Origin: a virus
Virus record (IMG/VR): IMGVR_UViG_3300017971_000201
Span: 1-64,000 of that record
Direction: 5' to 3' (one strand)
DNA: 64,000 bases
Part shown: piece after piece, positions 10,914-48,443 of the stretch
How the letters are laid out: each line of letters starts with the position of its first letter
Numbering within the stretch: position 1 is the first letter of the stretch
Position numbers and translations under genes: made by a program
Notes under the pieces: model-generated
The model's input: only the letters and a program-made list of their open reading frames with translations
Told to the model about the DNA's origin: nothing
Databases searched by the model: none

Positions 10914-11165
10914 ATGAGCGAGGAGCGACCTTTCGACATCTCCGAGCTGTCTTGGAGCAGGCTATCACCAATCATGCGGCGCCGGCTACGCGACGGCGAG
11001 CGCGGGCTCAACGCATCTCGGGAGAATGGGGACGTCGAGGTCATCGCTGACGGTGTTCGCGCGCTTCAGTCCACCGACTCGGTCGGTACGCCGGCCGAGA
11101 ACAAGAGCGTGATGCGCGCCCACGACGAGATGATGGACTACCTACGAGAGAGCGGGTACTGGTGA
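10914..11165 (+). CDS. Hypothetical protein
   Basis: ORF coupled to the next gene. Confidence 0.5.
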   Translation: MSEERPFDISELSWSRLSPIMRRRLRDGERGLNASRENGDVEVIADGVRALQSTDSVGTPAENKSVMRAHDEMMDYLRESGYW

Positions 11166-11869
11166 CGATCCTCTCGAGCCCATGGCCTCAGCTGGATGAT
11201 GTCTCTCTAGGATTCCACCCGGGCGAGCTGATCCTCCTGGCCGGCCAGACGAAGCGAGGCCGGACCTGGGTGCTTCTCACGATGGCGAACGCGGCAGCCC
11301 AGGCGTTGCAAGACGAGCGCGTGCTGATCTTCCCGACCACCACGCCGGCGCGAGATGTGCACATACGCCTCTACGCGCTCCGCACGAAGCAGTCCTACAA
11401 CATCGTCAGGCAGAGCGCTGTCGATCACCTGGCCGAGGTCGGGGAGAGGGATGACCGACTGCGCATCATGTCGTTCGATCCGTGCAAACACTCTCCTACG
11501 TTCGAGGAGCTGACCAAGCGGTCGGGCGACGGTTACGCGGGACTGTTCGTGGACGACATGATGTTCGCGTGCAGCCGTTACAAGGACTACAGGCGCAGGG
11601 AGATACGATACGCGGCTGAGCTGAAGGAGCTGGCGATCCGCCGCAGTATCCCGGTCATCGCGACGGTGCACTCCAGCAACAACGGCTATGCCGTCCCACA
11701 GGGCCTGTCAGATCACGCCGACGTCGTCCTTCGTCTGGATCCGTTCAACTCACTCTCGCAGAAGCCTGGGCCGCGCAAGGTCATCGTGGACGCAGCCCGT
11801 GGGTTTCGGAGCGGCTTCGACATCTCGATCAAGTTCGATCCGGCGGCCGGAGAGTACGGCGGGCCGTAG
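11162..11869 (+). CDS. Degenerate DnaB C-terminal domain paralog
   Basis: LSSPWPQLDDVSLGFHPGELILLAGQTKRGRTW aligns by eye with helicase LSSPWLDVDKYSLGLQPGELTVLLAKRKVGK/TW. Confidence 0.75.
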   Translation: MTILSSPWPQLDDVSLGFHPGELILLAGQTKRGRTWVLLTMANAAAQALQDERVLIFPTTTPARDVHIRLYALRTKQSYNIVRQSAVDHLAEVGERDDRLRIMSFDPCKHSPTFEELTKRSGDGYAGLFVDDMMFACSRYKDYRRREIRYAAELKELAIRRSIPVIATVHSSNNGYAVPQGLSDHADVVLRLDPFNSLSQKPGPRKVIVDAARGFRSGFDISIKFDPAAGEYGGP

Positions 11870-11894
11870 CGCGTCCATCTCGTAGAATCGCGGC

Positions 11895-12317
11895 ATGGAC
11901 TCGTCACGTCGAAAGGCGCTCGAAGACTACTGCCAGCGCAAGCCGTCCGTACCTCTTGAGAACAGGATGCACCTCACCATGGCGCACGCCTTGCGGTGCC
12001 GGTGCCAGAAGTGCAATCGGATCATCACCTGGGAAGACGCGGACTCGATTGGGATCATCACCGGCGAGTGCTGCAAGCTCGTCTACCGGCTATACCCGTT
12101 CTCGGTCATGGTCCGTGTCGAGGACAGCCGACCGGAGGCCCTGCTCCCGCCGACCCGGGAAGACAGTCTCTTTCCGGCGATCGACGCCGACATCATGAAG
12201 CTCGCGGAGCGCCCGCTCGATGCGGCACCGCCCCCGGCGTCGAGGGATCAGGCACCAGATCCAGCGTGTTCAGCTGGAGCGTATTCCGACGATCCCAGTC
12301 TTCCACGCGCTTCTTGA
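11895..12317 (+). CDS. Cys-rich hypothetical protein
   Basis: CRCQKC...ECC. Confidence 0.5.
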   Translation: MDSSRRKALEDYCQRKPSVPLENRMHLTMAHALRCRCQKCNRIITWEDADSIGIITGECCKLVYRLYPFSVMVRVEDSRPEALLPPTREDSLFPAIDADIMKLAERPLDAAPPPASRDQAPDPACSAGAYSDDPSLPRAS

Positions 12318-12534
12318 TCTCTGGGTCCTCGATTGCCGCGAGCCTCTCAACAGCGGACGGTTCAAGCCGCCGGCTCGCCTCGACAGCGACGCCAATCGCC
12401 GAACCTCCGCCGATCGAGTGACCAGCCACGGTCCCATCAACTCTCGCGAAGAGCATCTCGCCGGCGTCGATGCACCCGTTGGCCGGCAGCTCGACCTCGC
12501 CGCCGTCATTCAGTCGGATTCGGACGCTCTGCAT
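12193..12534 (-). CDS. Hypothetical protein with SAVDRL-type motif
   Basis: EPSAVERLAAIEDPEIKKRVEDW. Confidence 0.5.
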   Translation of the reverse strand: MQSVRIRLNDGGEVELPANGCIDAGEMLFARVDGTVAGHSIGGGSAIGVAVEASRRLEPSAVERLAAIEDPEIKKRVEDWDRRNTLQLNTLDLVPDPSTPGAVPHRAGAPRAS

Positions 12535-12832
12535 CCTTGTCCTTCCTCGGTTGAGCGAGCATCGTCTGGTGCGGGTCCTGCACCCGCGTCTGCCCGTCCC
12601 ACTCCGGGTTGTCCCGCTCCACCTTCCTGAGCAGGGCTCGGCCCATGATCGAGCGAGCGATGTCGCGAACCGCGTCGCCGGCCCCCTCGCCGAAGTGCTC
12701 CTCCATCTCCTCGATCGACTTGAGCAGCTCTTGAGCCTTCTCCGGCTTGCCGTCGGCCAGGTCACGCGCCCACTCCGGCTCGGGGAGCTGCTCGCCGAGC
12801 CTGAGCGGTCGCCGCTTCTTGGGCCTGCTCAC
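12506..12832 (-). CDS. Hypothetical protein
   Basis: Translationally coupled ORF. Confidence 0.55.
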   Translation of the reverse strand: MSRPKKRRPLRLGEQLPEPEWARDLADGKPEKAQELLKSIEEMEEHFGEGAGDAVRDIARSIMGRALLRKVERDNPEWDGQTRVQDPHQTMLAQPRKDKDAERPNPTE

Positions 12833-13104
12833 GCCTCATCATCCTTGTCTCGCACCAGGTCGGCCAGCTCTTCGACCGCGCTGGGGGGAAGAGGCTGCGG
12901 CCAGATGTGAACCGTGTTGCTCGCACCGCCGGATCCACCAGCTCCGCCGCTTCCGCCTCCTGCGGTGATGCTCGGAGTCGGCTTACCGTTACCGCCGATC
13001 CCCGTCGTGATGCTGCCGCTGAAGACGATGGCCGAACAGCCGCCTCTACCGCTCCATCCGCCGGAGCCGCCAGAGATGACCGTGTGGCTGTTAGTTCTCG
13101 TCAT
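12829..13104 (-). CDS. Gly-rich protein with SAVDRL-type motif
   Basis: PPSAVEELADLV at C-terminus. Confidence 0.55.
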   Translation of the reverse strand: MTRTNSHTVISGGSGGWSGRGGCSAIVFSGSITTGIGGNGKPTPSITAGGGSGGAGGSGGASNTVHIWPQPLPPSAVEELADLVRDKDDEA

Positions 13105-13110: not shown

Positions 13111-13362
13111 CTACTCCCACAGTGATCTCAGATCGGCCAGCATCTCGTCGAAACTGGCCCTCGCCTTGTCGTAGTCCTCCACCTTCTTCTTCGCGTCGGG
13201 ATCTACAACAGCCGCGAGCTTCTCGACGACGGACGGCTCGGCCGGCAGACCGGCGGTTCGGAGCTTCCTCGGCTTCGCGATCACCTCCTCAGAGCGGATG
13301 TTCAGCTCGATCGCAGGCAGATCGTCCCAGTCATCGGGCAGGCCGTCTGGTCTCATGGGCAT
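13111..13362 (-). CDS. Hypothetical protein with SAVDRL-type motif
   Basis: EPSVVEKLAAVVDPDAKKKVEDY. Confidence 0.6.
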   Translation of the reverse strand: MPMRPDGLPDDWDDLPAIELNIRSEEVIAKPRKLRTAGLPAEPSVVEKLAAVVDPDAKKKVEDYDKARASFDEMLADLRSLWE

Positions 13363-13637
13363 CCCTCGGAGAGGAAGCCCAGGCGGTCTACGGCGGACAT
13401 CTGGGCGCGCTTGATCTCCTTGTCGATCTCGGCCTTCATGAGGCCGGCCGCGCCCGCGATGATCTCTTCCTCGACCGACGACGCTGTCGGCCCCGGACCG
13501 GGATCGTCCTCGCCGCGCGAGATGGCAGCGAGCCGATCGACGGCCGAGCGCTCCATCGACGGGAAGATGCCGAAGTCTCGCAGGAAGTCTTGTTGAGCCT
13601 CGACCGAGTGCTTGGCCCGGAAGCTACGCCTGGTCAT
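13353..13637 (-). CDS. Hypothetical protein with two SAVDRL motifs
   Basis: RSAVDRLAAI and MSAVDRLGFL. Confidence 0.6.
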   Translation of the reverse strand: MTRRSFRAKHSVEAQQDFLRDFGIFPSMERSAVDRLAAISRGEDDPGPGPTASSVEEEIIAGAAGLMKAEIDKEIKRAQMSAVDRLGFLSEGCP

Positions 13638-14028
13638 GGCCCACTTGTTCGATCAGCGCTCTCAGCCTCTTCTTGTTCGTGGCTGTTGTGATGAACACCT
13701 CTGCGTGCATCCGCTCGATGCTCTCCTTGGTCTCCTCGGTCACGTACCGGAAGCAGTCGAGCAGTGTCCGCTGCTGTTCGTTCCCTTCGTCGTAGGTCTT
13801 GGAGATCTTCTCGACGTCGTCCTTCCGCTCTCCGGTGCCGCGCGAGCTGACGCCGACGCCGACTGACGTGTGCAGCCAGTGGTTGAAGCTGCGCTTCCGC
13901 CGGCGGAGGATCTGCTCCTCCGGCGTGCAGGACAGGTCGCCCAGCTCGGCGATGAGATCGCGGGCCTCTCCTTCTCCCCAGTCGTCGGCCGCGCTCATAT
14001 CGGCATCTCCCATACCGGCATCTCCCAT
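13624..14028 (-). CDS. Hypothetical protein
   Basis: ORF in coupled series. Confidence 0.5.
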   Translation of the reverse strand: MGDAGMGDADMSAADDWGEGEARDLIAELGDLSCTPEEQILRRRKRSFNHWLHTSVGVGVSSRGTGERKDDVEKISKTYDEGNEQQRTLLDCFRYVTEETKESIERMHAEVFITTATNKKRLRALIEQVGHDQA

Positions 14029-14372
14029 ACCTTGTTCAGGGATGCCTTTGTCATAGCGTGATCGTCGTACTTCTTGATCTTCTTCGCCAGTTCGCCTTCG
14101 GGCTCTGCCAGCGCGGCGAGTCGATCGACGGCCGATGGCTCCCACATACCGTAGCGCGGCCGGTAGAAGGCGACGCCACCGATCGGCGGCGTCATCGGCT
14201 GGACCGACACGATCGGCTCGTACAGCGGATCGTGTATCCGGGACCGCCGGATCATCGCCAGCCCAGCCTTCACCCACGGTGGCGGGTCACCGCCCTGGAC
14301 TCGGATCTCCTTCGCGAGCTGCCGCTCGAAGCTCTCGATGATCTCGCGTGTCGCCTCCATCACGGCGCTCAT
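13995..14372 (-). CDS. Hypothetical protein with SAVDRL motif
   Basis: IVSVQPMTPPIGGVAFYRPRY followed by EPSAVDRLAAL. Confidence 0.6.
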   Translation of the reverse strand: MSAVMEATREIIESFERQLAKEIRVQGGDPPPWVKAGLAMIRRSRIHDPLYEPIVSVQPMTPPIGGVAFYRPRYGMWEPSAVDRLAALAEPEGELAKKIKKYDDHAMTKASLNKVWEMPVWEMPI

Positions 14373-14788
14373 CGGACCACATCTCCGAGTAGATCGATGA
14401 CCGCTGGTCCGTCCGGTATCGCGCCGATGTTCAGGTCAACGGTGATGATCTCCATGCCGCGAACCAGCTGACCGTGGCGTGTTCCGAAGGCTCGAATAAC
14501 ACCGTGCACCGGGTAAGTGCGCCCAATCTCCACGAACGTCCTGGCCATCCGTCCTTGCTCGTTGTCCACGAACTCCAGGTCGGTTTCAAGCTGCCCGTCC
14601 GCCTTCACACGCAGGCCGGTGACGATATGCGAGGCGGTGGTCAGCCGCATCCGGCCCGTCGCCTCTGGGCTGCTCAGCTCGCCGATCATGCGTCGACCTT
14701 CGATCTTCTCCTGCACGCGCGCGATGGCCGCCCTCAGCTCGCTGGCCGTGGTGTGAATCGGGGCTACGGGCAGAGTGTAGATGGTCAT
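14369..14788 (-). CDS. Protein resembling a T4 gp21-type prohead protease fragment
   Basis: MIGELSSP...ASHIVTGL...DNEQGRMA...IRAFG...IITVDL pattern; expected catalytic H/S appear replaced. Confidence 0.45.
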   Translation of the reverse strand: MTIYTLPVAPIHTTASELRAAIARVQEKIEGRRMIGELSSPEATGRMRLTTASHIVTGLRVKADGQLETDLEFVDNEQGRMARTFVEIGRTYPVHGVIRAFGTRHGQLVRGMEIITVDLNIGAIPDGPAVIDLLGDVVR

Positions 14789-14824
14789 TCCTCTCCAGAC
14801 GTTCTACCCCGGCCCCGGTGTCTA

Positions 14825-15370
14825 CTACTCGATGGGCGGCGGCTCCCAGGTTCCGGCCTTCACCTCGTTCACCCACGCCAGCGCATCTTCGTAGGAGACC
14901 ATGCGGCCGAGGAGGTTCTTGTAACCCTTCAGGACGAGAGCGATCTCCTCGGACCGTCGCCACGGCATCCCGATGATCTCGTAGTACCATCCCAGCTGTT
15001 CCTCGGCCCACATGAACGACTTGTCGGTGCCATAGCGCGCGATCCACAGCAGGACGCCCATCGCGAACTGCCGCTTTGAGTGCTCCTGCTCATGGCGCAG
15101 CCTGGCGCGATAGGAGGCGCTGCCGGGCGGGTTCTTCGTGAGCCACTTCTCGATCGATTCGACGTACACGTGGTTGCCGACCGTGGTGATCTGGTTCTCG
15201 CCGCCGAGCATGTCCGGCCGCTCGGCCATCACGACGAGCGGCTTCCATTCCTCGTCGAGGTCCATGGTCTCGTAGCCCATGGCGTCAGCCGCCTTGTCCA
15301 CCATGACGCATCCGCTGGGTAGAACGAGGACCAGCGCCAGAAGCACGAGCTGGGAAATTCGAGTCATCAT
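14825..15370 (-). CDS. Lipoprotein with HExxH motif
   Basis: Signal peptide ending LPSGC; LRHEQEH. Confidence 0.6.
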   Translation of the reverse strand: MMTRISQLVLLALVLVLPSGCVMVDKAADAMGYETMDLDEEWKPLVVMAERPDMLGGENQITTVGNHVYVESIEKWLTKNPPGSASYRARLRHEQEHSKRQFAMGVLLWIARYGTDKSFMWAEEQLGWYYEIIGMPWRRSEEIALVLKGYKNLLGRMVSYEDALAWVNEVKAGTWEPPPIE

Positions 15371-15417: not shown

Positions 15418-15837
15418 ATGGCAGAGCTTGAGTTGCCCCCAGGGGCGAAGGTCGAGGAGACGAAGCCCGCGCCGGCCGAGGAGAAGCAGGAGACGGACTG
15501 GACGGAGACGCCGTTCCCGATCGAGCTGTTCAGCAACAACATCGTGATCAAGCGCGACGACGTGGACGAGATGACCGAGGGCGGGATCATCCTCCCCGAG
15601 ACCGCGCGCCAGGGCCAGTACCGCACGATGGTCGGCACCGTGATCGCGGTCGGCCCGGGGTTCATGAAGGGCGACGGGTCGTGCATCCCGATGCGTGTCG
15701 CGGTCGGCGACCGGGTCGTCTTCCGCAAGTTCCAGGCGATGGTCGAGCTGACGGTCGACGGATTCGACTACCACCTCCTCGACGAGAACGGCCTGCTCGG
15801 CAAGGTTCGCGAGGGCGGCGTCACGAAGGTCCGCTGA
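15418..15837 (+). CDS. groES: Co-chaperonin GroES
   Basis: TEGGIILPE, GTVIAVGPG, VAVGDRVVF. Confidence 0.9.
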   Translation: MAELELPPGAKVEETKPAPAEEKQETDWTETPFPIELFSNNIVIKRDDVDEMTEGGIILPETARQGQYRTMVGTVIAVGPGFMKGDGSCIPMRVAVGDRVVFRKFQAMVELTVDGFDYHLLDENGLLGKVREGGVTKVR

Positions 15838-16721: not shown

Positions 16722-18395
16722 GTGGCGAACAAGGCCATCTTCCAGGGCGCGACCGCAGGTCGCTCCGTTCCCGCAACCGACACCGTGAACAATGCCGGAG
16801 GCCGGGCATACGAGTTCGGCCCGAAGCACGCGCTCGCACAGCTGGCGTGCACCGGCACCTTCAACGAGACCTTCTACGGCACTGCCGTCGACCAGCTCGA
16901 GGGCATCCGCAAGGCGGCCGACCAGGTCGAGCCCACCTTCCTCGCCAAGTGCGCGGTCTACGCGCGCCAGAAGGGCGGGATGAAGGACATGCCGGCGGCA
17001 CTCATCGTCATGCTGTCGAAGGCCGACCCGGCCCTGTGCTCGCTCGTCTTTCCCCTGGTCATCGACAACGGGAAGATGGTCCGCAACCTGGTCCAGATGG
17101 TCCGCTCCGGCGCGCTCGGCCGGAAGTCGATGGGGTCTGGCCTCAAGCGGCTCGTCAACAAGTGGATCCAGCAGCGGTCGGCGCGCGCGCTCTTCCGCGC
17201 GACTGTGGGGAAGAGCCCCAGCCTGGCCGATGTGATCCAGCTCACTCACCCGAAGGCGAAGGACGAGGAGCAGAAGGCCCTCATCGGCTACATCCTCGGC
17301 CGAGAGCACGACGCGTCCAAGCTGCCTGGCATCGTCCAGCACTACGAGGCGTTCAAGCGCGGCGAGTCGGACGAGGTCCCCGACGTGGACTTCCGGCAGC
17401 TCACCTCGCTGCCGCTCAAGCCGCATCACTGGGCGCAGATCGTCCGCAACGGCGGATACCAGTTCACCATCAAGAACCTCAACACGGCGGCGCGCCACGG
17501 CGTGTTCGACGCGCCTGGGCTGTCCGAGCTGATCGCGGCCCGGATCGCCAACCGTGAGGAGCTGGAGAAGGCCAGGATCTTCCCCTACCAGCTGCTCGTG
17601 GCCTATCTGAACGCGGGCAGGCACCCGGACCCGACCTACCAGCGGTACATGGCCTACTTCCGTCGCCACAATGAGACGGCACGCTCTGAGATCGACCTGC
17701 CCGACTCGGTCAGGGACTCTCTCCAGGACGCGATGGAGGCGGCGACCGAGAACGTCCCCAGCTTCGGCGTGCCCACGGCGGTGATCGTGGACGTCAGCGG
17801 CTCGATGCAGTCCCCGGTCACGGGCGAGCGGAAGGGCTCGACGACCAAGGTCCGATGCGTGGACGTGGCCGGCCTCATGGCAGCCACCGTGCTTCGCCGG
17901 AACAAGGGTTCGATCGTGATCCCCGTGGACGCCGACGTCCACAGCACGCGGATCGTCAACCCGCGCGACACGGTCGTGACGAACGCCATCAAGCTGTCCC
18001 AGATGGGTGGCGGCGGGACCAACCTCTCGCTGGCCCTTTCCCACCTGAACAAGCTGAAGAGGTCGCACGAGTTCAAGCTCGTGATCATCGTCAGCGACAA
18101 CGAGTCGTGGGTCGACTCTCGCGGGTGCGCGGGCTACTACGGCCGTGGAACCCGGCTCATGGATGAGTTCCGCCAGCTCCAGCAGAAGGCCGGCGGCGCG
18201 CGGATGGTCTGCATCGACATCACGCCGAACAGGAGCACCCAGGCGCCGAGCGCGCCGGACGAGATCATGAACATCGGTGGGTTCTCGGACTCGATCTGGA
18301 GTACCATCAACCGCTTCGCGGCCGGCGACACGCACGACGTGGACGCCTGGGTCGCAGAGATTGAGGCGATCAGCCTCGAGCAGCCGGAGGTGTAA
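16722..18395 (+). CDS. rsr: Ro60/TROVE-domain RNA-binding protein (Rsr)
   Basis: NNAGGRAY, LAQLACTGTFNETFY, ARIFPYQL, C-terminal VWA VDVSGSM...GGGTN...SDNESW...IGGFSD. Confidence 0.92.
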   Translation: MANKAIFQGATAGRSVPATDTVNNAGGRAYEFGPKHALAQLACTGTFNETFYGTAVDQLEGIRKAADQVEPTFLAKCAVYARQKGGMKDMPAALIVMLSKADPALCSLVFPLVIDNGKMVRNLVQMVRSGALGRKSMGSGLKRLVNKWIQQRSARALFRATVGKSPSLADVIQLTHPKAKDEEQKALIGYILGREHDASKLPGIVQHYEAFKRGESDEVPDVDFRQLTSLPLKPHHWAQIVRNGGYQFTIKNLNTAARHGVFDAPGLSELIAARIANREELEKARIFPYQLLVAYLNAGRHPDPTYQRYMAYFRRHNETARSEIDLPDSVRDSLQDAMEAATENVPSFGVPTAVIVDVSGSMQSPVTGERKGSTTKVRCVDVAGLMAATVLRRNKGSIVIPVDADVHSTRIVNPRDTVVTNAIKLSQMGGGGTNLSLALSHLNKLKRSHEFKLVIIVSDNESWVDSRGCAGYYGRGTRLMDEFRQLQQKAGGARMVCIDITPNRSTQAPSAPDEIMNIGGFSDSIWSTINRFAAGDTHDVDAWVAEIEAISLEQPEV

Positions 18396-25791: not shown

Positions 25792-25815
25792 TCAACCATG
25801 AGGTAGAACATCTGC

Positions 25816-28721: not shown

Positions 28722-28876
28722 CCCACGAATGCCTTGGGAGACTACATCCTGCAAGCCGGTGTCCGAATGGACGTGCGGGTTCGAGTCCCGCCCGGCCGCC
28801 TCGACGGCCGGTGGCGGAATGGTAGACGCGCCGGAGGTGGAGACACCATGAAGTCCCCCGCCCCTTACGTCGTGGG
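28722..28876 (+). ncRNA. yrlA: YrlA-type Y RNA (permuted tRNA mimic)
   Basis: cccacgaatgcc..gactacatc; then variable arm, T arm gcggg-ttcgagt-cccgc, loop-closed acceptor ccggccg/cggccgg, D arm tggcggaatggtagacgc; 3' acgtcgtggg closes the terminal stem. Confidence 0.85.
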
Positions 28877-33982: not shown

Positions 33983-35121
33983 TTGGTCGACTCCGCGAAG
34001 AACTTGAGGACCGCGAGAACCCTCGGATCCTTCTTGTTCTTGTCGGCGGCGTCCACCAGCTTCGAGACGTCGCCACCGTTGGCCTGGAAGACCGAAACAC
34101 CAGCCGCCACGCACTCACGGCTCTTCTGGGAGACGTGCGCCAGGGCGAGGAGGAGCTTGATGTAGATCTTCTTGTCCTTGTCCTGGTTCATGGCGGCGAA
34201 CTCGCCGAGCGCCGTGACGAGCGCGGCCAGCCGGTCGGGCTCCTCGGGCGGGTGAGGCATCGCCTTCTCGGGATCGTCGAGCACTGCCTTCGGGTTCGGC
34301 AGCTCCTTCTGGAGCTTCACGAAAGAGACGAACTCGGTCCCGACGCCGGACCCGACCAGCCCCTCGGCCACGGCGCGGAGCGGACCGAAGTCGCCCTTCC
34401 CGAACTTGAGCGCATCCTCGTAGAGGAGACCGAGGTTGTGCCAGCTCCGGGGGGTGGCGAACTGACCGTTCTCCTTGTCCGCCTGGTTCGGGAGCTGGGA
34501 GAAGAACGCGGGCTTCCACGTGAGGAAGCCGCCGACCACCGGGGGGAGGCTCTGGCTCGCGGCCCAGTACATCCACTCCTCCAGCTCGGGCTCCAGGCTG
34601 ACCAGGCAGACCCGGTTGCGGAGCGGGGAGGGCAGCTCGCGGGCGCCCGCCTTGTCGCTGGCCCGGTTGCCGGTGAGGATGATCCGCACGTTGGGGCTCA
34701 GCTCGAGGTCACCCATGCTGCGCTCCTGGACGAGCTGGAAGCAGGCCGTCTGGACGGCGCGCTGCGCCTGGGTGATGTCCTCGAGCACGAGGACCCCGTA
34801 GGGATCGGAGCCGTCCGGCCCAGCCCCTTTGGCGAGCTGGCCGAGGAACTTGGGCGGGCAGAAGTCGGTGAACCGCTGCTCGGTCTTGTCGAACGTGACC
34901 GTGACCATGAACGGGACACCGCTCATGTCTTCCGGGAGGTGGCCCGTCAGCTCCCGTCTGACGGTCAGACCAGTCGTGCCCACCTTGGCGGCGCGCGCCT
35001 GCTCGGCCGCCCCGATCGCCTGGGCGAGCGCCGACTTTCCGATGCCGGGCCGGCCCAGGAAGAACAGCGGCACGCTGGGTGGTAGAACGGCCGCTAAGTT
35101 GAGGATCTCGTTGAAGTTCAT
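33979..35121 (-). CDS. MoxR-family AAA ATPase
   Basis: GRPGIGKS, GNRASDKAG, PLRNR, FATPRSW. Confidence 0.85.
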   Translation of the reverse strand: MNFNEILNLAAVLPPSVPLFFLGRPGIGKSALAQAIGAAEQARAAKVGTTGLTVRRELTGHLPEDMSGVPFMVTVTFDKTEQRFTDFCPPKFLGQLAKGAGPDGSDPYGVLVLEDITQAQRAVQTACFQLVQERSMGDLELSPNVRIILTGNRASDKAGARELPSPLRNRVCLVSLEPELEEWMYWAASQSLPPVVGGFLTWKPAFFSQLPNQADKENGQFATPRSWHNLGLLYEDALKFGKGDFGPLRAVAEGLVGSGVGTEFVSFVKLQKELPNPKAVLDDPEKAMPHPPEEPDRLAALVTALGEFAAMNQDKDKKIYIKLLLALAHVSQKSRECVAAGVSVFQANGGDVSKLVDAADKNKKDPRVLAVLKFFAESTK

Positions 35122-35216
35122 ATCGCTGGTTGTCTCTCCTCTGCACTGGTTCTACCCGGGTCTCGGGCGCGCCTGTGCCAGATTCCGAAAGAGCTGAGGA
35201 GGCGATCCGTTTCGTC

Positions 35217-38376: not shown

Positions 38377-38418
38377 GCTGTTTCCGTCCGATCCGCCGGT
38401 CATATACCATCCGCGTCT

Positions 38419-41004
38419 TTAGGCGTTGTCACCCCCGAGTAGCTCCGCAGCTGTGAAGCGCCGCAGGCACTTCATGCAGGTGGTCTTCTTGCCGCTCTCC
38501 TTCATCCGATCGACCACCTTGCGCGAGATGAGCTTGATCTCGCCCTTCTCCTTGCAGCCTGGACAGAAGTAGGCGCCCGAGGTCAGCGCTGACGGCTCTC
38601 GCGCGTCCAGGCGGGCGAGCCTCGCGCGCGCGATCTGGGCGTAGTCCTCATCCTTGTCGCAGGTCACGAACTGGAAGCCGAGCCTCTTCGCGGCCACTGG
38701 CGTCGAGCCCGTCCCGCAGAACGGATCAAGCACGACTCCGCCCTCCTGCGTGACGAGCCGGATGAGGTACTCCATTAACGCAAGCGGCTTCTGGGTCGGG
38801 TGGCTGATCACCTCGTCCTTGTGCTCGTCGTGCTCCTCGAAGCTGTCACCCTCATGGTTGAAGACCAGCTGACAGCGGCGGCAGTAGGACCAACGCTCCT
38901 TCGTCGCTGCCTTGGGCGTATAGAAGAAGCGGCAGCTAGCAGCGAGCTTTTCTTCTACGGTAAGCCCGCATGTAGGCGTTGTGTTCGGATGACGCGGATG
39001 GATCGTCAGAAAGAAGCGGCTTGCGCCTCCTGCGTCATCGAATCCGGTTCTTGGCTGTAAGGATCCCACGCGACCTTTACCGCTATCCGCGATAGCCGGA
39101 CTGGCCGAACGCCGGATGGCAATAGGATTGGTGGGTACGGTGCTCTGGCTGCGCCCACTCTGCCGATCAAGCTCGGCGACCGGACAGCCAGGCGCGCACT
39201 CGTACTCCTGGACCTCTTCCTTGCCATCGTCGTCGGCGTAGGTCTGATCTTCGCCGCGCTGAGTGCGAGCCTTCAGGTTGATCCGCTGGTCTGCACCATC
39301 CTCCGGCAGGTTGCGCTTCACCGCCGTTCCGGTGCGTACCCGCTTCGATCCGACCAGCTGGCACTCGTCAGTAGCACAATGAACGAACCATTTGCGCCAT
39401 CCAGCCGGAATCAGTTCACGGATAACTTCAAGGCGCGCACTTGGGCGCGTAGCCGTTTGTTCTCCGCCCGAATTCTTACAAGTTCTCGTTCCACCTTCCG
39501 GTGGTCCTTGCTGTGGTCTCTCCGATCCGTGACTTCCAGGTTCCTCGGCCGGTTGTCGTCCTTGATCCCGTTCCGGTGGTGAACGATCTCCGTACGCGCC
39601 AGCGGTCTGCCCAGCGTCATCGCGGCAACCGCCCTGTGCTCCAACACGTACTTGCCCTTCACCATCTTCCGAGCGAACGGTCGCAGCGGTTCTGGGAGCA
39701 CTTCGATCATCACGTGCAGGTAGCCGTTGCGGTCCTTGTATCTGCCGCCCTTCCACTGCGACGAATTCTCCCGCAGGAACTTGCCCGTCGCCGCGTCCGC
39801 CATCTTCTTGCGAGACGCTTTCGTGTGGCGTTTCCCTAGTCGGCTGAGGTTGGCCTTCGCATGGCACGCCCGCGAGCAGTACTTCCTTCGCCCGTTCCTC
39901 GCCCATGCCGGTGTGACCTCGAAACTCCGCCGGCAGTGCTTGCAGGTGATCTTCACCCACTGCACCTTGCGCTTCTTGCGGCGCGCTTGTCCAGCGCACG
40001 CCTGAGTACAGAAGCGTCGTTTCGCGAGCCGCGCCGGCATCCCGCGCATCAGCTCTCCGCAGTGCTCGCACGGCTTCGTCAACGCGGTAGTAGGCATAGA
40101 TCGTGGCACGCTGCTCCTCCGTCGCATCGGGTACGAGCGTGTACCAATCATACTCGATATGTGAGAGGATCACGTTCGATGGCCACCGTCCGTCCTTCGA
40201 CTCGCACGCGATGTTCTTGAAGCCGCCTTTGTGGCAGGGAGAGCCTCCCTTGCCCTTCGGGTAGCTCCAGCCTGGGTTCGGGCCGACGCGTGCCGCGTCG
40301 ATGTTCAGCGCGCCTGTTCCGTGTTCCAGAACGTGGTCGGCGTACCGGCCGTTGAACGGCTTGCGGGCCAGCACGATCGGCTCGTGCGCCGGCTTGAGAG
40401 CTGTTCCCCAGCCCTTCCATGCCGCACCTTCCTCGGTCGCCGGCTCATCCCGGATCGTCCGGCCGCCGCGCCTGTCCTTGCTCGAGATCCCCCTGTTGGT
40501 CGTGTGCTCACGCCGCCGGCCCTCGCCAGTGCGGACCTCGTCGTTCGCGAACTTGATCGCGTGCGAGTCCGAGCGGCCGGTCGTCAGCAGCGCGTCGATG
40601 CCCTTCGAGATGTTGTGCGACTTCGGGAAGCCGGTGCCTGTGAGCCAGTCGATCTGGTCGTAGACCTCGAAGCCGGCGAACCGGATCGCCATCACGCCCC
40701 AGTCGAATGTGCGCGTCCCGAAGAATGACATCAGCCAGGCGCCGGGCTTCAGGACACGGTAGACCTCGCGCCAGAGCGTCGGGCCGGGGACGAACCTGTC
40801 CCACTCGTTCTCCATGAAGCCGCCGCCGGCCGGCGCGAAATCCTCACCGGCGAGCCAGGCGCGCATGACCTCAGCTGGATCAGGCTGGTGGACGCCCAGG
40901 CCGTACGGGCTGTCGGTCACACAGGAGTCGATGCACTCGTCGGGGAGCTGCCGCAGGTACTCCGCAGCATCGCCAACCCCGACTGCATTCAGGTAAGACA
41001 CCAA
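38419..41004 (-). CDS. DNA N6-adenine/N4-cytosine methyltransferase (beta class) with large insertion
   Basis: VTDSPYG, GFPKS, GWGTALKPAHEPI, HPTQKP, LDPFCGTGST. Confidence 0.88.
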   Translation of the reverse strand: MVSYLNAVGVGDAAEYLRQLPDECIDSCVTDSPYGLGVHQPDPAEVMRAWLAGEDFAPAGGGFMENEWDRFVPGPTLWREVYRVLKPGAWLMSFFGTRTFDWGVMAIRFAGFEVYDQIDWLTGTGFPKSHNISKGIDALLTTGRSDSHAIKFANDEVRTGEGRRREHTTNRGISSKDRRGGRTIRDEPATEEGAAWKGWGTALKPAHEPIVLARKPFNGRYADHVLEHGTGALNIDAARVGPNPGWSYPKGKGGSPCHKGGFKNIACESKDGRWPSNVILSHIEYDWYTLVPDATEEQRATIYAYYRVDEAVRALRRADARDAGAARETTLLYSGVRWTSAPQEAQGAVGEDHLQALPAEFRGHTGMGEERAKEVLLAGVPCEGQPQPTRETPHESVSQEDGGRGDGQVPAGEFVAVEGRQIQGPQRLPARDDRSAPRTAATVRSEDGEGQVRVGAQGGCRDDAGQTAGAYGDRSPPERDQGRQPAEEPGSHGSERPQQGPPEGGTRTCKNSGGEQTATRPSARLEVIRELIPAGWRKWFVHCATDECQLVGSKRVRTGTAVKRNLPEDGADQRINLKARTQRGEDQTYADDDGKEEVQEYECAPGCPVAELDRQSGRSQSTVPTNPIAIRRSASPAIADSGKGRVGSLQPRTGFDDAGGASRFFLTIHPRHPNTTPTCGLTVEEKLAASCRFFYTPKAATKERWSYCRRCQLVFNHEGDSFEEHDEHKDEVISHPTQKPLALMEYLIRLVTQEGGVVLDPFCGTGSTPVAAKRLGFQFVTCDKDEDYAQIARARLARLDAREPSALTSGAYFCPGCKEKGEIKLISRKVVDRMKESGKKTTCMKCLRRFTAAELLGGDNA
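39411..40097 (-). CDS. HNH endonuclease nested out of frame within the methyltransferase
   Basis: Zn fingers, WKGG, YVLEHRAV..LGRPL..EIVHHRNGIKDDNRPRNLE. Confidence 0.88.
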   Translation of the reverse strand: MPTTALTKPCEHCGELMRGMPARLAKRRFCTQACAGQARRKKRKVQWVKITCKHCRRSFEVTPAWARNGRRKYCSRACHAKANLSRLGKRHTKASRKKMADAATGKFLRENSSQWKGGRYKDRNGYLHVMIEVLPEPLRPFARKMVKGKYVLEHRAVAAMTLGRPLARTEIVHHRNGIKDDNRPRNLEVTDRRDHSKDHRKVERELVRIRAENKRLRAQVRALKLSVN

Positions 41005-41759: not shown

Positions 41760-41779
41760 GGTGTCCTCCAAGGACCGTT

Positions 41780-42169
41780 CTACCCGGCGTCGGCCACATC
41801 TCGGCCAAGATCGGCCAGGGCCTCGACAGCATCAGCTGGCCAGCGCGGCTTGGTCTCGCGCGTCTTGAGCGTCGTATCGGTGACCTCGACGACCTCGGCT
41901 TCCCAGCCGTCCGAGACCAGGTGCTTGAACCTGTTGACGATCTTGGAGAACCGCCGCGCCCAGGGAACGCTGTCGAACTCCCACGCGTCGTCGATGTTGC
42001 ACGTCGTGTACCACGACCTGTCGGGCGTTATCCGACCATTCTTCCAAGAGCGCCCCGTCTCGGTGGCCGCAGCCCATACGCAGTTCAGGTCCCCGTCGTC
42101 GTCCATGCGCTGGAAGCGCAGGAGAATCCTGGTCGTTGCGCTGTCCTGGATGGTCTCGCGCTCGATCAT
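41780..42169 (-). CDS. Hypothetical protein with terminal motif
   Basis: WPADAVEALADLGR. Confidence 0.55.
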   Translation of the reverse strand: MIERETIQDSATTRILLRFQRMDDDGDLNCVWAAATETGRSWKNGRITPDRSWYTTCNIDDAWEFDSVPWARRFSKIVNRFKHLVSDGWEAEVVEVTDTTLKTRETKPRWPADAVEALADLGRDVADAG

Positions 42170-42663
42170 GCGACCTCCGCTTCCTCCGCCTCCTTCATCT
42201 CCTCGGTCAGCACTGACAGGCCGACCTCGGCGAGAGCTGAGATCACGTCGAGCGGGTAGACGCGCCGGGCCGTGCGCCTGATCGTGCAGACGACCTCCAG
42301 CACCTCCAGCTTGTAGCACCACTTGAGGAGCTGCTTGGACCGGCCGACGATCTTCGAGTACTTGAGCGCTTCGCCAACGCTCTCGAACCGATGGGCAAGC
42401 AGGATGTTCTTCGTGTCGCCCCACTTCCGTCGCGGCCGATACTCGCCGCTGCGGGCGTCCCACCGCTCACCGTCGCTCTCGCTTTCCAGATAGACCATCT
42501 TGTTGATCCACTTGTAGAGAGGCTGGCCGGTCGTCTTCGACTTCAGGCGAACTCTGACGGTCCTGCCGTTCTTCTGCTTCTTCCGCGTCCTGCTGATTCT
42601 CGCCCGCTTGGTGTAACGCAGCACGAAGTACGACTCTCGCGCGTCGGTGATGACCTCAGCCAC
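42166..42663 (-). CDS. Basic hypothetical protein with terminal motif
   Basis: YPLDVISALAEVG. Confidence 0.55.
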   Translation of the reverse strand: MAEVITDARESYFVLRYTKRARISRTRKKQKNGRTVRVRLKSKTTGQPLYKWINKMVYLESESDGERWDARSGEYRPRRKWGDTKNILLAHRFESVGEALKYSKIVGRSKQLLKWCYKLEVLEVVCTIRRTARRVYPLDVISALAEVGLSVLTEEMKEAEEAEVA

Positions 42664-43045: not shown

Positions 43046-43320
43046 GACGCCCTCCCTACGGTCGTCTCGAACAGGAACGGGAGCCCGTCGCAGCCAGCAT
43101 CCCAGACGTCCTGGGCAGTGAACGTCGCGGCCCACGCGTCCACGTAGACCGACCACGGGCCGAGGTGGTTGCCATCATCGGCCGCCACGTGCTCGGGCAC
43201 GAAGCGGACCGTCTGATCCTCCTCGACGAACACCAGGAATCCGTCGCCCCACTGCGGGTGCGTCGCGGTCATCAGGCCCCAGTCTTCGACGTGTCCCAGC
43301 TTCACGAGTAGCGCTCCCAC
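43042..43320 (-). CDS. Hypothetical protein
   Basis: Coupled ORF. Confidence 0.45.
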   Translation of the reverse strand: MGALLVKLGHVEDWGLMTATHPQWGDGFLVFVEEDQTVRFVPEHVAADDGNHLGPWSVYVDAWAATFTAQDVWDAGCDGLPFLFETTVGRAS

Positions 43321-44132
43321 GGCTCGAGCTGCCTGGCGTAGCGCCCGCGATTCCGCCCTCGACGCTCGCGCCGGAACAGCCGGCCCAGCTCGTCGTGGAA
43401 GCGGCGCGGATCGAAGGTCGTGTCCGAGTCGCGGGCCTGGTCGCCGTACGGGACCGTGATCGGCTCGAGCTGCTCGTCATCCTTCTCGTTGCTCACGATG
43501 ACCGCGTGGATCCGGCGGAAGCCTTCGCCGTCGATCCCGATCGCGTGCTCGTAGCGTGCGATCTCCCGGTGGCTCTCGTGCCCGAACACGATCGTGCCCC
43601 AGCGACCGTCGTAGACCTCGGCCCAGAACACGTCGCTCATCATGGTGCCAGGCAGCTCGTAGTAGCGGTCGTCGAGATAGCGCGTGCGGAGCATGTAGTC
43701 GCCGCCGATCTCGGGCGTCGCCATGTGCGGCGTGACCCCACCGTGGACGCAGAACAGGTCCAGCTCGTGGACCACGATGTATCGCGGGAGCGTCTCCATC
43801 CAGTCCAGCTCGGCTCGGGTGAGCTGCTGGTAGAGGCGGCGATCCTCGGGTGTCGGGATACGGTCGCGGCCCGGCTTGGGCACCCGCCGGCGGATCCGCA
43901 CGTAGGCATCCTCGTGGTTGCCGCTGATCACCTCGAGCGAGTGAAGCTCGCCGGACCTGGCTCGGAACTGCCAGGTCATCGCAATGCGGAGGCACGCCTT
44001 GGATTCAGGACCACGGTCGACCAGGTCGCCGAGCAGGATGATGCGGTCGACGCCTCGCTCTTCCAGCTCGCCGATCATCTCGGCCAGCTCGCGGGCGTGT
44101 CCGTGAACATCTCCTATGATCCCTACTCGCAC
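43302..44132 (-). CDS. Metallophosphoesterase (PPP/ApaH-like)
   Basis: GDVHG, GDLVDRG, GNHE, VHGG, FGH. Confidence 0.9.
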   Translation of the reverse strand: MRVGIIGDVHGHARELAEMIGELEERGVDRIILLGDLVDRGPESKACLRIAMTWQFRARSGELHSLEVISGNHEDAYVRIRRRVPKPGRDRIPTPEDRRLYQQLTRAELDWMETLPRYIVVHELDLFCVHGGVTPHMATPEIGGDYMLRTRYLDDRYYELPGTMMSDVFWAEVYDGRWGTIVFGHESHREIARYEHAIGIDGEGFRRIHAVIVSNEKDDEQLEPITVPYGDQARDSDTTFDPRRFHDELGRLFRRERRGRNRGRYARQLEPWERYS

Positions 44133-44414: not shown

Positions 44415-44454
44415 CCTCCTCATCTCTCTCAACAACCTCGCCGGCTGTTCTCAC
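44415..44454 (-). promoter_or_regulatory. Repeated motif copy 2
   Basis: gtgagaa-N11-gttgttgagagagatgaggagg. Confidence 0.7.
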
Positions 44455-44714
44455 ACGCCAATCCTCGCTCCTCCGGCAAGTGCGGCGAGTCGCTCGATGG
44501 CGCTCACCTCGGTGATCTCGTCGGGCTGCGCCCAGTCGCGGAAGCCGTACTCGCCGCGCCAGCGCACGAGCACCGCCTCGCCCGGCCACGACGTGCGCAG
44601 CACCTTACCCCGCATCTTCCGCTGATCGTCGCTGAGGCTGTTGCCGAGGTCGTTCTCGAGCCACCGGACGATCGTGCCCTTCTCGAAGACGATCTCGTCC
44701 ATCGGGTCGCTCAC
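44451..44714 (-). CDS. Small SH3-like protein with SAVDRL-type motif
   Basis: GTIVRW..RGKVL..VLVRW..EVSAIERLAALAG. Confidence 0.6.
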   Translation of the reverse strand: MSDPMDEIVFEKGTIVRWLENDLGNSLSDDQRKMRGKVLRTSWPGEAVLVRWRGEYGFRDWAQPDEITEVSAIERLAALAGGARIGV

Positions 44715-46010: not shown

Positions 46011-46170
46011 CCTCCTTCATCCCTCTCAACAACCTCACCTCCTGTTCTCACGGTTCTACCCAGGACCGGTCCGGCGCGGCCCGGAAGCCTGGGTATAACC
46101 CCTGATAGCCCAGCAACATCGGATTTCCGTGTGAGAACCGAGAGCGGAGTTGTTGGGAGGGGTGAAGGAG
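46011..46170. promoter_or_regulatory. Divergent regulatory region with motif copies 3 (-) and 4 (+)
   Basis: 46011-46051 on minus and 46131-46170 on plus, plus GGGTAGAAC (46053) and GGGTATAAC (46091). Confidence 0.7.
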
Positions 46171-46177: not shown

Positions 46178-47026
46178 GTGGGACTCAAGAAGGTCAGCAA
46201 GAAGACGCTCGCGAAGAAGACGCTCACGGACGGGATCCAGGTCCCCTGGAACCTGTGCCTCGACTACCTGCTCGCCGGGCGGGCGGTCGTCACGCTCGTT
46301 GACGTTGCCACCACCAAGCGGCACACCTACTTCGTCTCCCGCGCCGTGGACGAGGTGAAACAGGACGACGGGACGACCAAGGAGATCGAGAAGGACCGCT
46401 GGTTCGTCCACGTGCTCCACGGCTCCGGCGTCAGCCGGCGCTACTCCTACATCGGCGTGATCGACGACGTGCACGGCGTCCGCCGGTTCCGCACCACGAA
46501 TGGGACCAAGACGGCCGCGACCGCCGAGAACATCAACCTGATCGGCGACACGACCAAGTGGCTCGTGGACGGCACCGACGCGTCCCACAAGATCAAGTTC
46601 TGGCACCGTGGCTTCTGCGCTCGCTGCTGCGCGGAGCTGACCGTGCCCGAGTCGATCGCGACCGGCTTCGGCCCGGTCTGCGCCGCCACGATGGGGATCG
46701 AGATGAAGAAGGTCGCGCCGAGCGCGATCGAGAAGCTCGCCGCGCTCTCGCCGGTCGAGGGCGAGGGCGAGCCGGCGCCGGTCGAGGAGGCGCCCAAGCC
46801 GATGGCCCAGGTGGTCAAGGACGCCTTCGACGCACTCGAGGTCGAGACGGACTGCGGACACGAGCCCGAGGCGCCCAAGGAGAAGGCCGCCAAGGTCGTC
46901 GAGCTGCCGGCCGCCGATCCGCTGCGGCCCGTGGCCGAGGCACTGGCCAGCATGAGCGTGGACGAGATCCACGCGTGGCTGAAGCAGCTCATGCCCGCCG
47001 CGCCGGCCAAGAAGGAGACGGCGTGA
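46178..47026 (+). CDS. DUF6011 Zn-finger protein
   Basis: CARCCAELTVPESIATGFGPVCA; APSAIEKLAAL. Confidence 0.75.
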   Translation: MGLKKVSKKTLAKKTLTDGIQVPWNLCLDYLLAGRAVVTLVDVATTKRHTYFVSRAVDEVKQDDGTTKEIEKDRWFVHVLHGSGVSRRYSYIGVIDDVHGVRRFRTTNGTKTAATAENINLIGDTTKWLVDGTDASHKIKFWHRGFCARCCAELTVPESIATGFGPVCAATMGIEMKKVAPSAIEKLAALSPVEGEGEPAPVEEAPKPMAQVVKDAFDALEVETDCGHEPEAPKEKAAKVVELPAADPLRPVAEALASMSVDEIHAWLKQLMPAAPAKKETA

Positions 47027-47143
47027 GCGCCGCTACAGGAACCACGCTGGGGCTCGTCCGCAAGGGAGGCGAGTCCCGGCCCGGAAGTCACCGCTACCAA
47101 CCTGAGAAGGCGGGGTAGAACCTACCCCAGGAGAGGATGTCCA

Positions 47144-47857
47144 GTGCCCAAGCTGCTCTTGACCAGCTACAAGTTCTACGACGCGATCGTGGGGCGGGTC
47201 AGCGCCGACCTGGCCGAATGGCTGCACGATCATGAGAAGAAGTGGAAGACCCAGGTTCGCTGGGATCTCCCCGACGACGACGCGAGCCGCGCCGAGGAAC
47301 TCGTGAGCGTCCTGTCGTCGCTCGCGGCCGATCCGAAGACGACCGGCAAGCGCGGGAAGGCCATCGACCGCCTGATCAGCGAGATCCGGGACGTGTACCC
47401 GGAGCCTGCGCCCGCTGCGGCGGCTGAGCCCGAGCTGGGCGAGGTGATCGAGGAGATCCTGAGCGGCAAGCGGGACGCCGGGATCCTGAGCGGCGATGGG
47501 GTCGACCCTGTCGCGCTCGATCCCGAGTCTCAGGCCCTCCTCGACGCCTCGATCGAGAACCTCCAGGCGGCCGGAATCGGCGTCGACTCGATCGAGATCC
47601 AGGCCGAGGATGGGACGACCATCCTCAAGGCCGAGGTTCCGAGCACGGCCGGCGACCAGGCGGCCTCCCAGGAGCCCGTGGAGGCGCCCCAGGCGCCCGA
47701 AGAGGTCGCGCAGGACTCGAAGGTCGAGCCGGCCGAGAAGGTCGCTCAGAAGGCCCCGCAGGCCGCTCCCGAGCCGGTCGCCCCCGCCGCGCCCCCGCCC
47801 CAGAAGCGGGCCGGCTACCTCCTCGCCGAGCTGTTCAACTCGCTCAACGGGGGTTAG
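47144..47857 (+). CDS. Acidic hypothetical protein
   Basis: ORF with RBS. Confidence 0.6.
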   Translation: MPKLLLTSYKFYDAIVGRVSADLAEWLHDHEKKWKTQVRWDLPDDDASRAEELVSVLSSLAADPKTTGKRGKAIDRLISEIRDVYPEPAPAAAAEPELGEVIEEILSGKRDAGILSGDGVDPVALDPESQALLDASIENLQAAGIGVDSIEIQAEDGTTILKAEVPSTAGDQAASQEPVEAPQAPEEVAQDSKVEPAEKVAQKAPQAAPEPVAPAAPPPQKRAGYLLAELFNSLNGG

Positions 47858-47867
47858 GCGTAAACCA

Positions 47868-48443
47868 TTGATCTTCGAGAACTTGACGAGCTGGAACACC
47901 GAGGATCTGCGCCAGGTCTTGGACCTGGCGCTCTCCGTTGCCAACGACCGGGGCAAGAAGATCGTCCTCCGGGTGGACACCCCGATCGTGGCCCGCCACT
48001 ACACGGCCCGGAAGGGGCTGGTCGCGGCTACCTTCCACCGCGAGACCCGGTCGTGCATCCTCCGGCTCCGCCGGCCCGGCCGGGTGGAGGTCGAGGCCGT
48101 AGACGCGCTCGCGAGCATCGCGGACGGAGGGATCGGCCGGATGCCCCGCGCCATGGTCGAGTACATCTTCCTGGCCGGGGTTGCGCTGGCGACGGGCCGG
48201 TCCTACCGAGACGGCTGGCTCCAGTTCGCCGACCGGATCGGGCCGCCGCCTCCCGAGCTGGCCCACCTCCGGGTCCGCGCCTCGCGCACCAGACACCGGC
48301 GAGCGCCCGCGTGGCTCGGTCGCCAGCTGGAAGCGGCCGAGCGCGAGATGGCCCGCATCCACGATCGCTGGAAGAGCGAGGTCGGGTTCCAGCAGCAGAA
48401 GATCGACGCGATCAAGAAGAAGCTCGCCAGCGCCCAGGACTAA
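47868..48443 (+). CDS. Hypothetical protein
   Basis: FENLTSWNTEDLR; EAVDALASIAD. Confidence 0.55.
   Translation: MIFENLTSWNTEDLRQVLDLALSVANDRGKKIVLRVDTPIVARHYTARKGLVAATFHRETRSCILRLRRPGRVEVEAVDALASIADGGIGRMPRAMVEYIFLAGVALATGRSYRDGWLQFADRIGPPPPELAHLRVRASRTRHRRAPAWLGRQLEAAEREMARIHDRWKSEVGFQQQKIDAIKKKLASAQD

Follow-up and report, generated by a model that had tools for sequence, protein, structure and literature searches.

A short amphipathic helix recurs in about a quarter of the proteins called on IMG/VR virus record IMGVR_UViG_3300017971_000201, a 159,664-bp contig (65% GC) of an uncultured T4-like giant phage, whose first 64 kb (positions 1 to 64,000) are referred to here as the window. The helix, captured by the loose motif (P)-S-A-[VI]-[DE]-x-L-[AG]-x-[LIV], is a real, strongly selected and portable tag: it is enriched, selected at the amino-acid level, helical in structure models, inserted into enzymes whose orthologues do not have it, written in lineage-specific dialects and almost excluded from the structural module. 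With slightly better than even confidence, we regard it most likely as a putative docking label that acts in trans for non-structural proteins.

A sequence-only reading had listed 15 such peptides on many unrelated proteins of the window and proposed that they form a docking or targeting tag. A six-frame regular-expression search of the window confirmed the observation and recovered all 15 peptides among 16 matches, all of which lie in frames called as genes (none in the other window frames). The peptides themselves had been given correctly, although their coordinates were starts or ends of open reading frames (ORFs) rather than motif positions. The matches are listed below with their scores in an iterated 15-column position-specific scoring matrix (the profile), whose threshold was set at about one false match per proteome.

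SAVDHLAEV, 11414-11440, plus strand: internal, residue 85 of 235 in ORF 11162-11869, a DnaB_C/AAA_25-like ATPase; 20.6 bits.
SAVERLAAI, 12331-12357, minus strand: ORF 12193-12534 (113 aa), within the extended module EP-tag-EDPE..RVEDWD; 28.3 bits.
SAVEELADL, 12856-12882, minus strand: ORF 12829-13104 (91 aa), 8 aa before the end and preceded by PP; 30.3 bits.
SVVEKLAAV, 13207-13233, minus strand: ORF 13111-13356 (81 aa), within the extended module; 28.1 bits.
SAVDRLGFL, 13371-13397, minus strand: second tag of ORF 13353-13637 (94 aa), 5 aa before the end; 26.1 bits.
SAVDRLAAI, 13521-13547, minus strand: first tag of the two-tag ORF 13353-13637; 29.6 bits.
SAVDRLAAL, 14109-14135, minus strand: ORF 13995-14372 (125 aa); 34.4 bits.
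AVIDLLGDV, 14378-14404, minus strand: ORF 14369-14788 (139 aa), 2 aa before the end and preceded by GP; 18.9 bits.
SVVDILADI, 28983-29009, plus strand: the sixteenth peptide, beyond the earlier list; internal, residue 46 of 175 in ORF 28848-29375; 20.2 bits.
SAVDRLAEL, 29576-29602, plus strand: ORF 29372-29656 (94 aa), 17 aa before the end of a small beta-barrel-like carrier; 28.0 bits.
DAVEALADL, 41807-41833, minus strand: ORF 41780-42169 (129 aa), 8 aa before the end; 26.1 bits.
DVISALAEV, 42223-42249, minus strand: ORF 42166-42663 (165 aa), 18 aa before the end of a paralogue of ORF 41780-42169; 15.0 bits.
SAIERLAAL, 44478-44504, minus strand: ORF 44451-44714 (87 aa), 8 aa before the end of a carrier modelled as a KOW/SH3-like barrel; 27.8 bits.
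SAIEKLAAL, 46721-46747, plus strand: residue 182 of ORF 46178-47026 (282 aa), between a DUF6011 zinc-ribbon-like domain and an acidic tail; 24.0 bits.
EAVDALASI, 48093-48119, plus strand: internal, residue 76 of 191 in ORF 47868-48443; weaker and atypical, 22.5 bits.
NAVTKLGDL, 60306-60332, minus strand: ORF 60270-60728 (152 aa), 11 aa before the end, in the tail-gene region; 20.8 bits.

NAVTKLGDL, previously listed as possible, scored above the profile threshold. SAVDHLAEV may be an intrinsic helix of its ATPase instead of an appended tag. Two further profile matches were rejected: DRIILLGDL (residue 29 of ORF 43302-44132, minus strand) is the GD motif proper to the metallophosphatase family and a false positive, and EEPDRLAAL lies inside a MoxR ATPase and is probably no tag. 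The peptides had also been described as mostly close to the C-terminus and often preceded by proline, which holds in part for the window: 8 of the 16 copies end no more than 20 aa before the C-terminus, and a proline precedes 6. The C-terminal position is strong in relatives, with a median of 5 aa to the end and 149 of 288 copies within 5 aa. In ORF 13995-14372 (minus strand), the tag module is placed between two pieces resembling the virus's own major capsid protein (VQPM..RPRY and AMT..LNKVW); in the protein atlas, this ORF has as its neighbours short proteins from other viruses labelled 'Gp23 domain'.

The structural genes of the contig that lie outside the window are of the T4 type (gp23-like capsid protein, portal, sheath, baseplate wedge and gp21-like protease). 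No close cultured phage was found in the phage collection, where the top capsid match was 32% identical. Relatives were found by scanning IMG/VR with a DNA pattern that covers one class of SAVDRLAAL spellings, and five were fetched:

G001: 275,101 bp, complete, with terminal repeats; capsid protein 95% identical.
G002 and G003: two halves of a single genome; capsid protein 81% identical.
G008: capsid protein 81% identical.
G005: 203.5 kb, 89% complete, GC 58%; capsid protein 69% identical.

Over the whole contig, the loose motif was matched 45 times, whereas 200 rounds of shuffling within each protein gave 0.33 matches on average and never more than 2; a strict version was matched 21 times compared with 0.03. 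The profile identified 61 sites in 59 of the 225 called proteins of the contig and 130 sites in 128 of the 433 proteins of the complete relative G001; a profile trained on G001 raised the latter to 145 sites in 141 proteins, about a third of the proteome. Profile sites numbered 120 in 119 of 282 proteins of G002 and 38 in 37 of 168 proteins of G003. Genes were called with our own simple codon-usage caller, and the exact tagged fractions are therefore approximate. By size, the tag was found in 52% of G001 proteins of 60-90 aa and in 44% of those of 90-125 aa. Gene frames contained 1.09-1.26 profile matches per 1000 aa, compared with 0.05 in the other frames of the same DNA; the value was likewise 0.05 in an unrelated phage of 61.5% GC, matches per residue being 24-fold rarer in both controls than in the gene frames. 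Scores were bimodal, the tag being either present or absent in a protein, and 105 of the 298 small proteins of the complete relative exceeded 4 bits in their C-terminal region, compared with 3 expected. The enrichment exceeds all three controls (shuffles, other frames and the unrelated phage) by far, and chance or composition is ruled out.

Selection acts on the amino acids of the tag. As the sequence-only reading had pointed out, codons differ between copies: the first serine is encoded by TCN 18 times and by AGY 14 times, and third positions are free. Across 42 orthologue pairs (G001 versus G002/G003), the tag was 68% identical compared with 39% for the remainder of the protein, and its codons showed 136 synonymous differences, 121 non-synonymous differences and 121 unchanged positions.

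The consensus reads [E]-[P]-[P] / S-A-[VI]-[DE]-[RQ]-L-[AG]-x-[LIV]-[AV]. A proline followed by a starting serine and, three residues on, an Asp or Glu is the classic N-capping box of a helix. The other conserved positions (2, 3, 6, 7, 9 and 10) fall on one helix face, position 7 being small. Typically, E-P precedes the tag and a polar tail follows it; these tails have a median length of 5 aa and are rich in A, D, E, R, P and G and poor in aromatic and large hydrophobic residues. The earlier description as an amphipathic, helix-forming peptide agrees with AlphaFold2 models, in which the tag was helical in two contexts (predicted local distance difference test score, pLDDT, about 88-91). In a barrel carrier, tag residues 72-80 were modelled as a helix (pLDDT about 88), and in the extended module the tag helix formed a hairpin, connected through a DP(E) turn to a second, long helix. 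The extended module (EP-tag-xDP..RVxx[WY]D) had 153 matches among 1.84 billion proteins and no sequence match in the PDB; all 153 are proteins of 51-229 aa, and therefore no parent domain was found.

Orthologue alignments demonstrated that the tag is portable, with precise insertions or extensions in enzymes whose orthologues are untagged. The PolA of G001 carries insertions of 8 and 22 aa, each with one tag, in loops of its exonuclease domain, and both are missing from the PolA of G005. A zeta-toxin-like kinase of G003 contains an exact 8-aa insertion (SAVDKLGA) in its basic tail that is lacking in the orthologues of G001 and of the window genome. C-terminal extensions bearing the tag were found in an N6/N4 methylase (G003) and in RNase H (G001), and again the G005 orthologues are without them. 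Both members were tagged in 31 orthologue pairs and one member in 8. Two tags in a single chain, as expected for a docking unit, occur in PolA, ORF 13353-13637 and ORF 150792-151310.

The spelling of the tag differs between lineages. The G008 dialect is [DS]-[VA]-V-[ED]-x-L-A-E-L, while the G005 dialect, x-[VP]-L-D-x-L-[AS]-x-I, is carried by 32 of 255 proteins and lies exactly at the C-terminus in 18 of the 32. A core of hydrophobic-[DE]-x-L-[AGS]-x-hydrophobic is common to the dialects. As a separate observation, replication proteins of G005 (RNase H, 120114-120668; DnaB, 138905-141532; ORF 142197-143783) have acidic-aromatic tails in place of the helix tag (DWDFWGDEDTW, DDDPPFDEE.. and DDDPF..), which hints at a different replisome docking code in that phage, similar to the tail of a single-stranded DNA-binding protein (SSB).

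The tag is distributed very unevenly along the genome. Within the structural block of G001 (186-262 kb), 3 of 80 proteins were tagged compared with 125 of 353 elsewhere, and among small proteins 2 of 24 compared with 102 of 234 (44%). No tag was found in the capsid, portal, protease or scaffold-like head proteins. Carriers sit in long tandem arrays. In G001, a promoter-like box, GGGTAGAAC, is located upstream of 54 genes and lies 7 nt before the ATG or GTG in 23 of them, a spacing that suggests a phage-specific -10-like promoter yielding leaderless mRNAs. The TAG of GGGTAGAAC is often the stop codon of the upstream gene, carriers included, and divergent genes have divergent box pairs between them. 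The box is common to carriers and replication genes (DnaN, RNase H) and rare in the structural block; the genes it marks are probably early or middle ones. A GGGTAGAAC lies within 75 nt of only 16 of 130 tags, at a variable spacing of 27-69 nt. In the window, GGTAGAAC occurs 11 times compared with 0.75 expected, and one of these boxes contains the TAG stop codon of the carrier ORF 41780-42169 (minus strand):

GGTAGAAC at 7418-7425, minus strand.
GGTAGAAC at 9015-9022, minus strand.
GGTAGAAC at 9044-9051, plus strand.
GGTAGAAC at 14801-14808, minus strand.
GGTAGAAC at 15318-15325, plus strand.
GGTAGAAC at 25802-25809, plus strand.
GGTAGAAC at 35081-35088, plus strand.
GGTAGAAC at 35149-35156, minus strand.
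GGTAGAAC at 41777-41784, minus strand.
GGTAGAAC at 46053-46060, minus strand.
GGTAGAAC at 47114-47121, plus strand.

The carriers are mostly orphans. A Pfam domain was recognised in about 6 of 118 G001 carriers, leaving some 95% without one; the domains were RNase H, SNase, a phage zinc finger, DUF6011, a DnaB_C-like ATPase and a metallophosphatase, the last through its own GD motif. The claim that the carriers are unrelated was upheld in part: with the tag masked, 58 of 59 were BLAST singletons, but profile iteration united 71 of 341 small carriers pooled from the relatives (21%) into one family, which had grown from 35 to 50 to 71 members. The 341 carriers formed 233 phmmer clusters, reduced to 186 after three rounds of profile merging. 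Members of the largest family consist of a predicted beta-barrel of 55-65 aa with a G-D-R-V turn, probably KOW/SH3-like, followed by the tag. The barrel was modelled by AlphaFold2 with a pLDDT of 84 and had Foldseek/VIA matches to YorP, Spt5/NusG KOW, eL21 and Tudor at middling Z values of 6.3-7.3, and the family had no Pfam match.

The helix is carried by many non-structural proteins of the phage, most of them small orphans, and by several DNA enzymes. We propose that it would dock these carriers in trans on one common reader, either a hub protein or a site such as a replication factory. The Pro/Ser N-cap and the Asp/Glu at position 4 would start an amphipathic helix of two and a half turns, with A2, V/I3, L6, A/G7 and L/I/V9 as its predicted hydrophobic face and, in most cases, a short polar and presumably disordered tail after it. 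Co-evolution of reader and tag would account for the dialects of the different lineages. A single reader or hub is the most economical explanation. More tentatively, and with clearly less confidence, the tag might constitute a proteome-wide address system, in which a nine-residue helix routes a third of the proteins (host-takeover mini-proteins, polymerase, RNase H, methylase and nuclease) to a dedicated, co-evolving reader or to a phage-built replication compartment of a kind not yet described.

Several points weigh against a docking label. One reader for 130-odd different proteins would meet heavy competition, and the search for a reader among phage-encoded candidates, mainly in the complete G001, found none; the reader may be encoded by the host. 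In the barrel family, which makes up at least 21% of the small carriers, the helix is modelled confidently right after the barrel and is covered by the top structural match, YorP; it may be part of the fold there, with its hydrophobic face buried. Of the earlier proposal that the tag docks on one hub protein, the shared portable helix stands, whereas docking itself remains conjectural.

Most candidates for a reader were rejected, on different grounds. A conserved 181-aa protein (14825-15370, minus strand), whose gene heads an array of eight tagged genes, is a lipoprotein (lipobox LPSGC) with an HExxH metallopeptidase motif and, as a lipoprotein, no cytoplasmic hub. Divergent from this gene, a GroES-like co-chaperonin is encoded at 15418-15837 (plus strand), and GroEL was not detected in G001. 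The pair formed by a MoxR-type AAA_5 ATPase (33979-35121, minus strand) and a DUF2201 metallopeptidase-vWA protein (32711-33982, minus strand) has orthologues in G001, G003 and G008 and none in G005 (89% complete). A second pair, a CobS/CbbQ-like ATPase (623-1714, minus strand) and a CobT-like vWA protein (3-629, minus strand), is conserved in all relatives and stays a candidate reader. An untagged barrel protein did not qualify as a receptor, as none is conserved and the 'untagged' barrel matches mostly have degenerate tags. No meaningful in-frame neighbour pair was found that would point to a read-through fusion of tag and reader. A resemblance to the ParA-binding 'LGRGLxALL' peptide at the N-terminus of ParB was dropped because no ParA-like ATPase is encoded (ParA/CbiA not detected in G001). 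BMC domain (PF00936) and encapsulin (PF04454) searches of the phage genes gave no match in the five relatives, the complete G001 included, although a shell could be encoded by the host.

Among the alternatives to a docking label, the most probable, though still unlikely, is that the helix belongs mainly to the structure of a small number of paralogous families that expanded massively, chiefly the KOW/SH3-like barrel with its C-terminal helix, with no common reader. Such families would have diverged beyond recognition, and occasional recombination among tandem small genes would have copied their 3' ends to other genes. This fits the growth of the barrel family under profile iteration, the tandem arrays, the helix modelled beside the barrel, and the fact that nearly all barrel members, even the 'untagged' ones, end in a degenerate version of it. 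However, insertions of 8-22 aa in loops and tails of well-known enzyme folds cannot be explained by the fold element of another family, 186 clusters were left after iteration, the tag is far better conserved than the remainder of the protein, and the dialects shift in step over unrelated carriers of a genome.

It is somewhat less likely still that the tag is a 'tool-belt' motif for the DnaN-type clamp of the phage or for another replisome hub that would hold DNA enzymes, along with many small factors, on phage DNA during its replication. Bacterial clamp-binding peptides follow the consensus QL[SD]LF, which the tag does not resemble. The clamp (6298-7410, minus strand, three beta-clamp domains) adjoins in the window replication operon an IstB/DnaC-like helicase loader (5680-6297, minus strand), a DnaB helicase with an intein and a LAGLIDADG endonuclease (2936-5680, minus strand) and a Toprim primase (1836-2936, minus strand). 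The carriers of known function are clamp clients or DNA enzymes, namely PolA with its two tags, RNase H, the N6/N4 methylase, an SNase-like nuclease and a zinc-finger DNA binder. DnaN was detected in the window, G001 and G003 and not in G005, whose PolA and RNase H are untagged. The tag is also acidic and hydrophobic and mostly C-terminal, like the clamp epitope of phage T4 (PMC2988020). Conversely, more than 95% of the carriers are orphan mini-proteins, G005 has 32 tagged proteins despite having no detectable DnaN (genome 89% complete), a gp45-type clamp (PF09116) had no match in G001 or the four other relatives, and the correlation between DnaN and tagging is based on just two lineages. Two further features of replication were observed: the combination of DnaN with a family A polymerase, present in G001, is unusual for a T4-type phage, and a conserved 261-aa protein of the G001 replication operon (39023-39808) with a Cys/His zinc pattern, a consensus C-terminal D..AI.F tail and no Pfam match looks, from its sequence, like a gp32-type SSB.

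A stability signal read by a host machine, either a timed degron of early proteins or a cap against C-terminal quality control, is improbable. It would suit the C-terminal position, exactly terminal in 18 of the 32 G005 carriers, and the non-structural nature of the carriers, which have GGGTAGAAC boxes in common with replication genes. The complete G001 has no detectable ClpP (PF00574) and no classic AAA+ unfoldase of its own, PF00004 giving only weak matches, to the helicase loader and CobS-like proteins, and a degron reader would therefore be host-encoded; G005 has one PF00004 match above the family cut-off (54689-55078). Yet a C-terminal degron is no explanation for the copies in PolA loops or for those that lie 30-140 aa before the end, a phage would hardly destabilise its own polymerase, RNase H and methylase, and the conserved capping box with a small residue 7 points to a specific contact between helix and groove.

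Highly improbable is capsid loading, one of the functions proposed initially, in which the tag would send cargo into the prohead for injection in the manner of T4 capsid targeting sequences (CTS) or encapsulin peptides. The phage does have a large head, a capsid of the gp23-type HK97 fold and a gp21-like protease, some tagged mini-proteins are made from capsid or portal pieces, and methylases and anti-defence proteins are injected by other phages (the Dar proteins of P1, the internal proteins and Alt of T4). This function is nevertheless disfavoured by the scarcity of tags in the structural block (3 of 80 proteins, 2 of 24 small ones, compared with 44% of small proteins elsewhere), by the untagged scaffold-like and head proteins, by the C-terminal instead of N-terminal position without a flanking L/I-x-E protease site, and by the implausible number of about 130 cargo species.

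A DNA-level element (promoter, -35 box or recombination site) or a compositional artefact has next to no probability: some tags do immediately precede a GGGTAGAAC box on the 5' side, the carrier ending with the TAG of that box, but the codon, box-spacing, frame and shuffle tests given above rule both out.

Some observations concern the genome at large. Myxococcus phage Mx1, the best match of the Ro60 gene in the window (16722-18395), was rejected as a relative, as only Ro60 and an HNH gene are common to both and Mx1 lacks the tag. Ro60 adjoins a region of lower GC (61-63%) at 18.6-30 kb in which few confident protein genes were called. An intein with a homing endonuclease interrupts a deoxynucleoside kinase in the window (36598-38403, minus strand), and Hint/intein segments were observed in relatives in PolA (several in G005), a ResIII helicase, the portal and the head protease.

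Giant phages contain small orphan genes by the hundred, nearly all of them without a known function, and here one selected label marks a third of the proteins. This provides a handle on the whole cohort, since a single bait could reveal the reader and one class of mutation could probe many genes, and it separates cohort proteins from others in metagenomic data. The tag is also a natural example of a short linear motif that spreads in a viral proteome, reaching loops of a polymerase, the tail of a kinase and the C-termini of enzymes. Provided that there is a compact reader, tag and reader could be usable as a portable docking pair.

No description of a proteome-wide tag of this kind was found by full-text searches of the literature or in a 2026 jumbo-phage review. 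The T4 CTS (IPI-III, Alt) is likewise a short amphipathic address peptide on unrelated proteins of a T4-type phage. It differs in being N-terminal, cut by the head protease at L/I-x-E and found on head components; the tag sits at the C-terminus or internally, is not flanked by a protease site and is nearly excluded from the structural module. Microcompartment encapsulation peptides (helices) and encapsulin cargo-loading peptides are short terminal peptides that, connected by a linker, route unrelated enzymes to one shell protein. The tag resembles encapsulation peptides as a predicted terminal amphipathic helix that often follows proline; its motif is different, its carriers are far more numerous, and these phages have no shell gene. 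Dockerins, calcium-binding domains of about 70 aa, are placed C-terminally on dozens to hundreds of unrelated proteins and are read by a scaffold. Their species-varying specificity for cohesins resembles the dialects described here, in contrast to the size of the unit (a 9-aa helix here) and to the repeat-rich scaffold, for which no counterpart was found. These three systems are functional analogies only, each failing a defining feature here. In eukaryotes, focal-adhesion proteins with four-helix bundles are bound by the paxillin-type LD motifs (LDxLLxxL). These are docking helices of about 8-10 residues, amphipathic, with an acidic residue and then leucine, and the G005 dialect V-L-D-x-L-A-x-I is similar; the resemblance is one of form only, as nothing speaks for homology and these phages have no reader of that type.

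Selective import into the chimallivirus phage nucleus is another case in which a giant phage sorts DNA-handling proteins from the remaining proteome; the abstracts on that system name no linear import signal (PMC11087766), and the phage studied here is T4-like. The nearest precedent in T4-type phages is the T4 clamp epitope, whereby gp43, gp33 and gp55 dock on gp45 through interchangeable acidic-hydrophobic C-termini (PMC2988020). T4 has three to a few carriers compared with 59-141 here, the sequence differs and forms a capped helix here, and a DnaN-type clamp occurs in some tag-bearing lineages in place of gp45, of which no homologue was found, any binding here being putative. The tag and the epitope are alike in form and position: the C-terminus is acidic-hydrophobic in both, although some copies of the tag are internal. 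The carriers here include PolA, RNase H, a methylase and a nuclease, but about 95% have no recognisable domain. In T4, as we propose for the tag, a short and interchangeable peptide on a variable linker is read by one hub on otherwise unrelated carriers.

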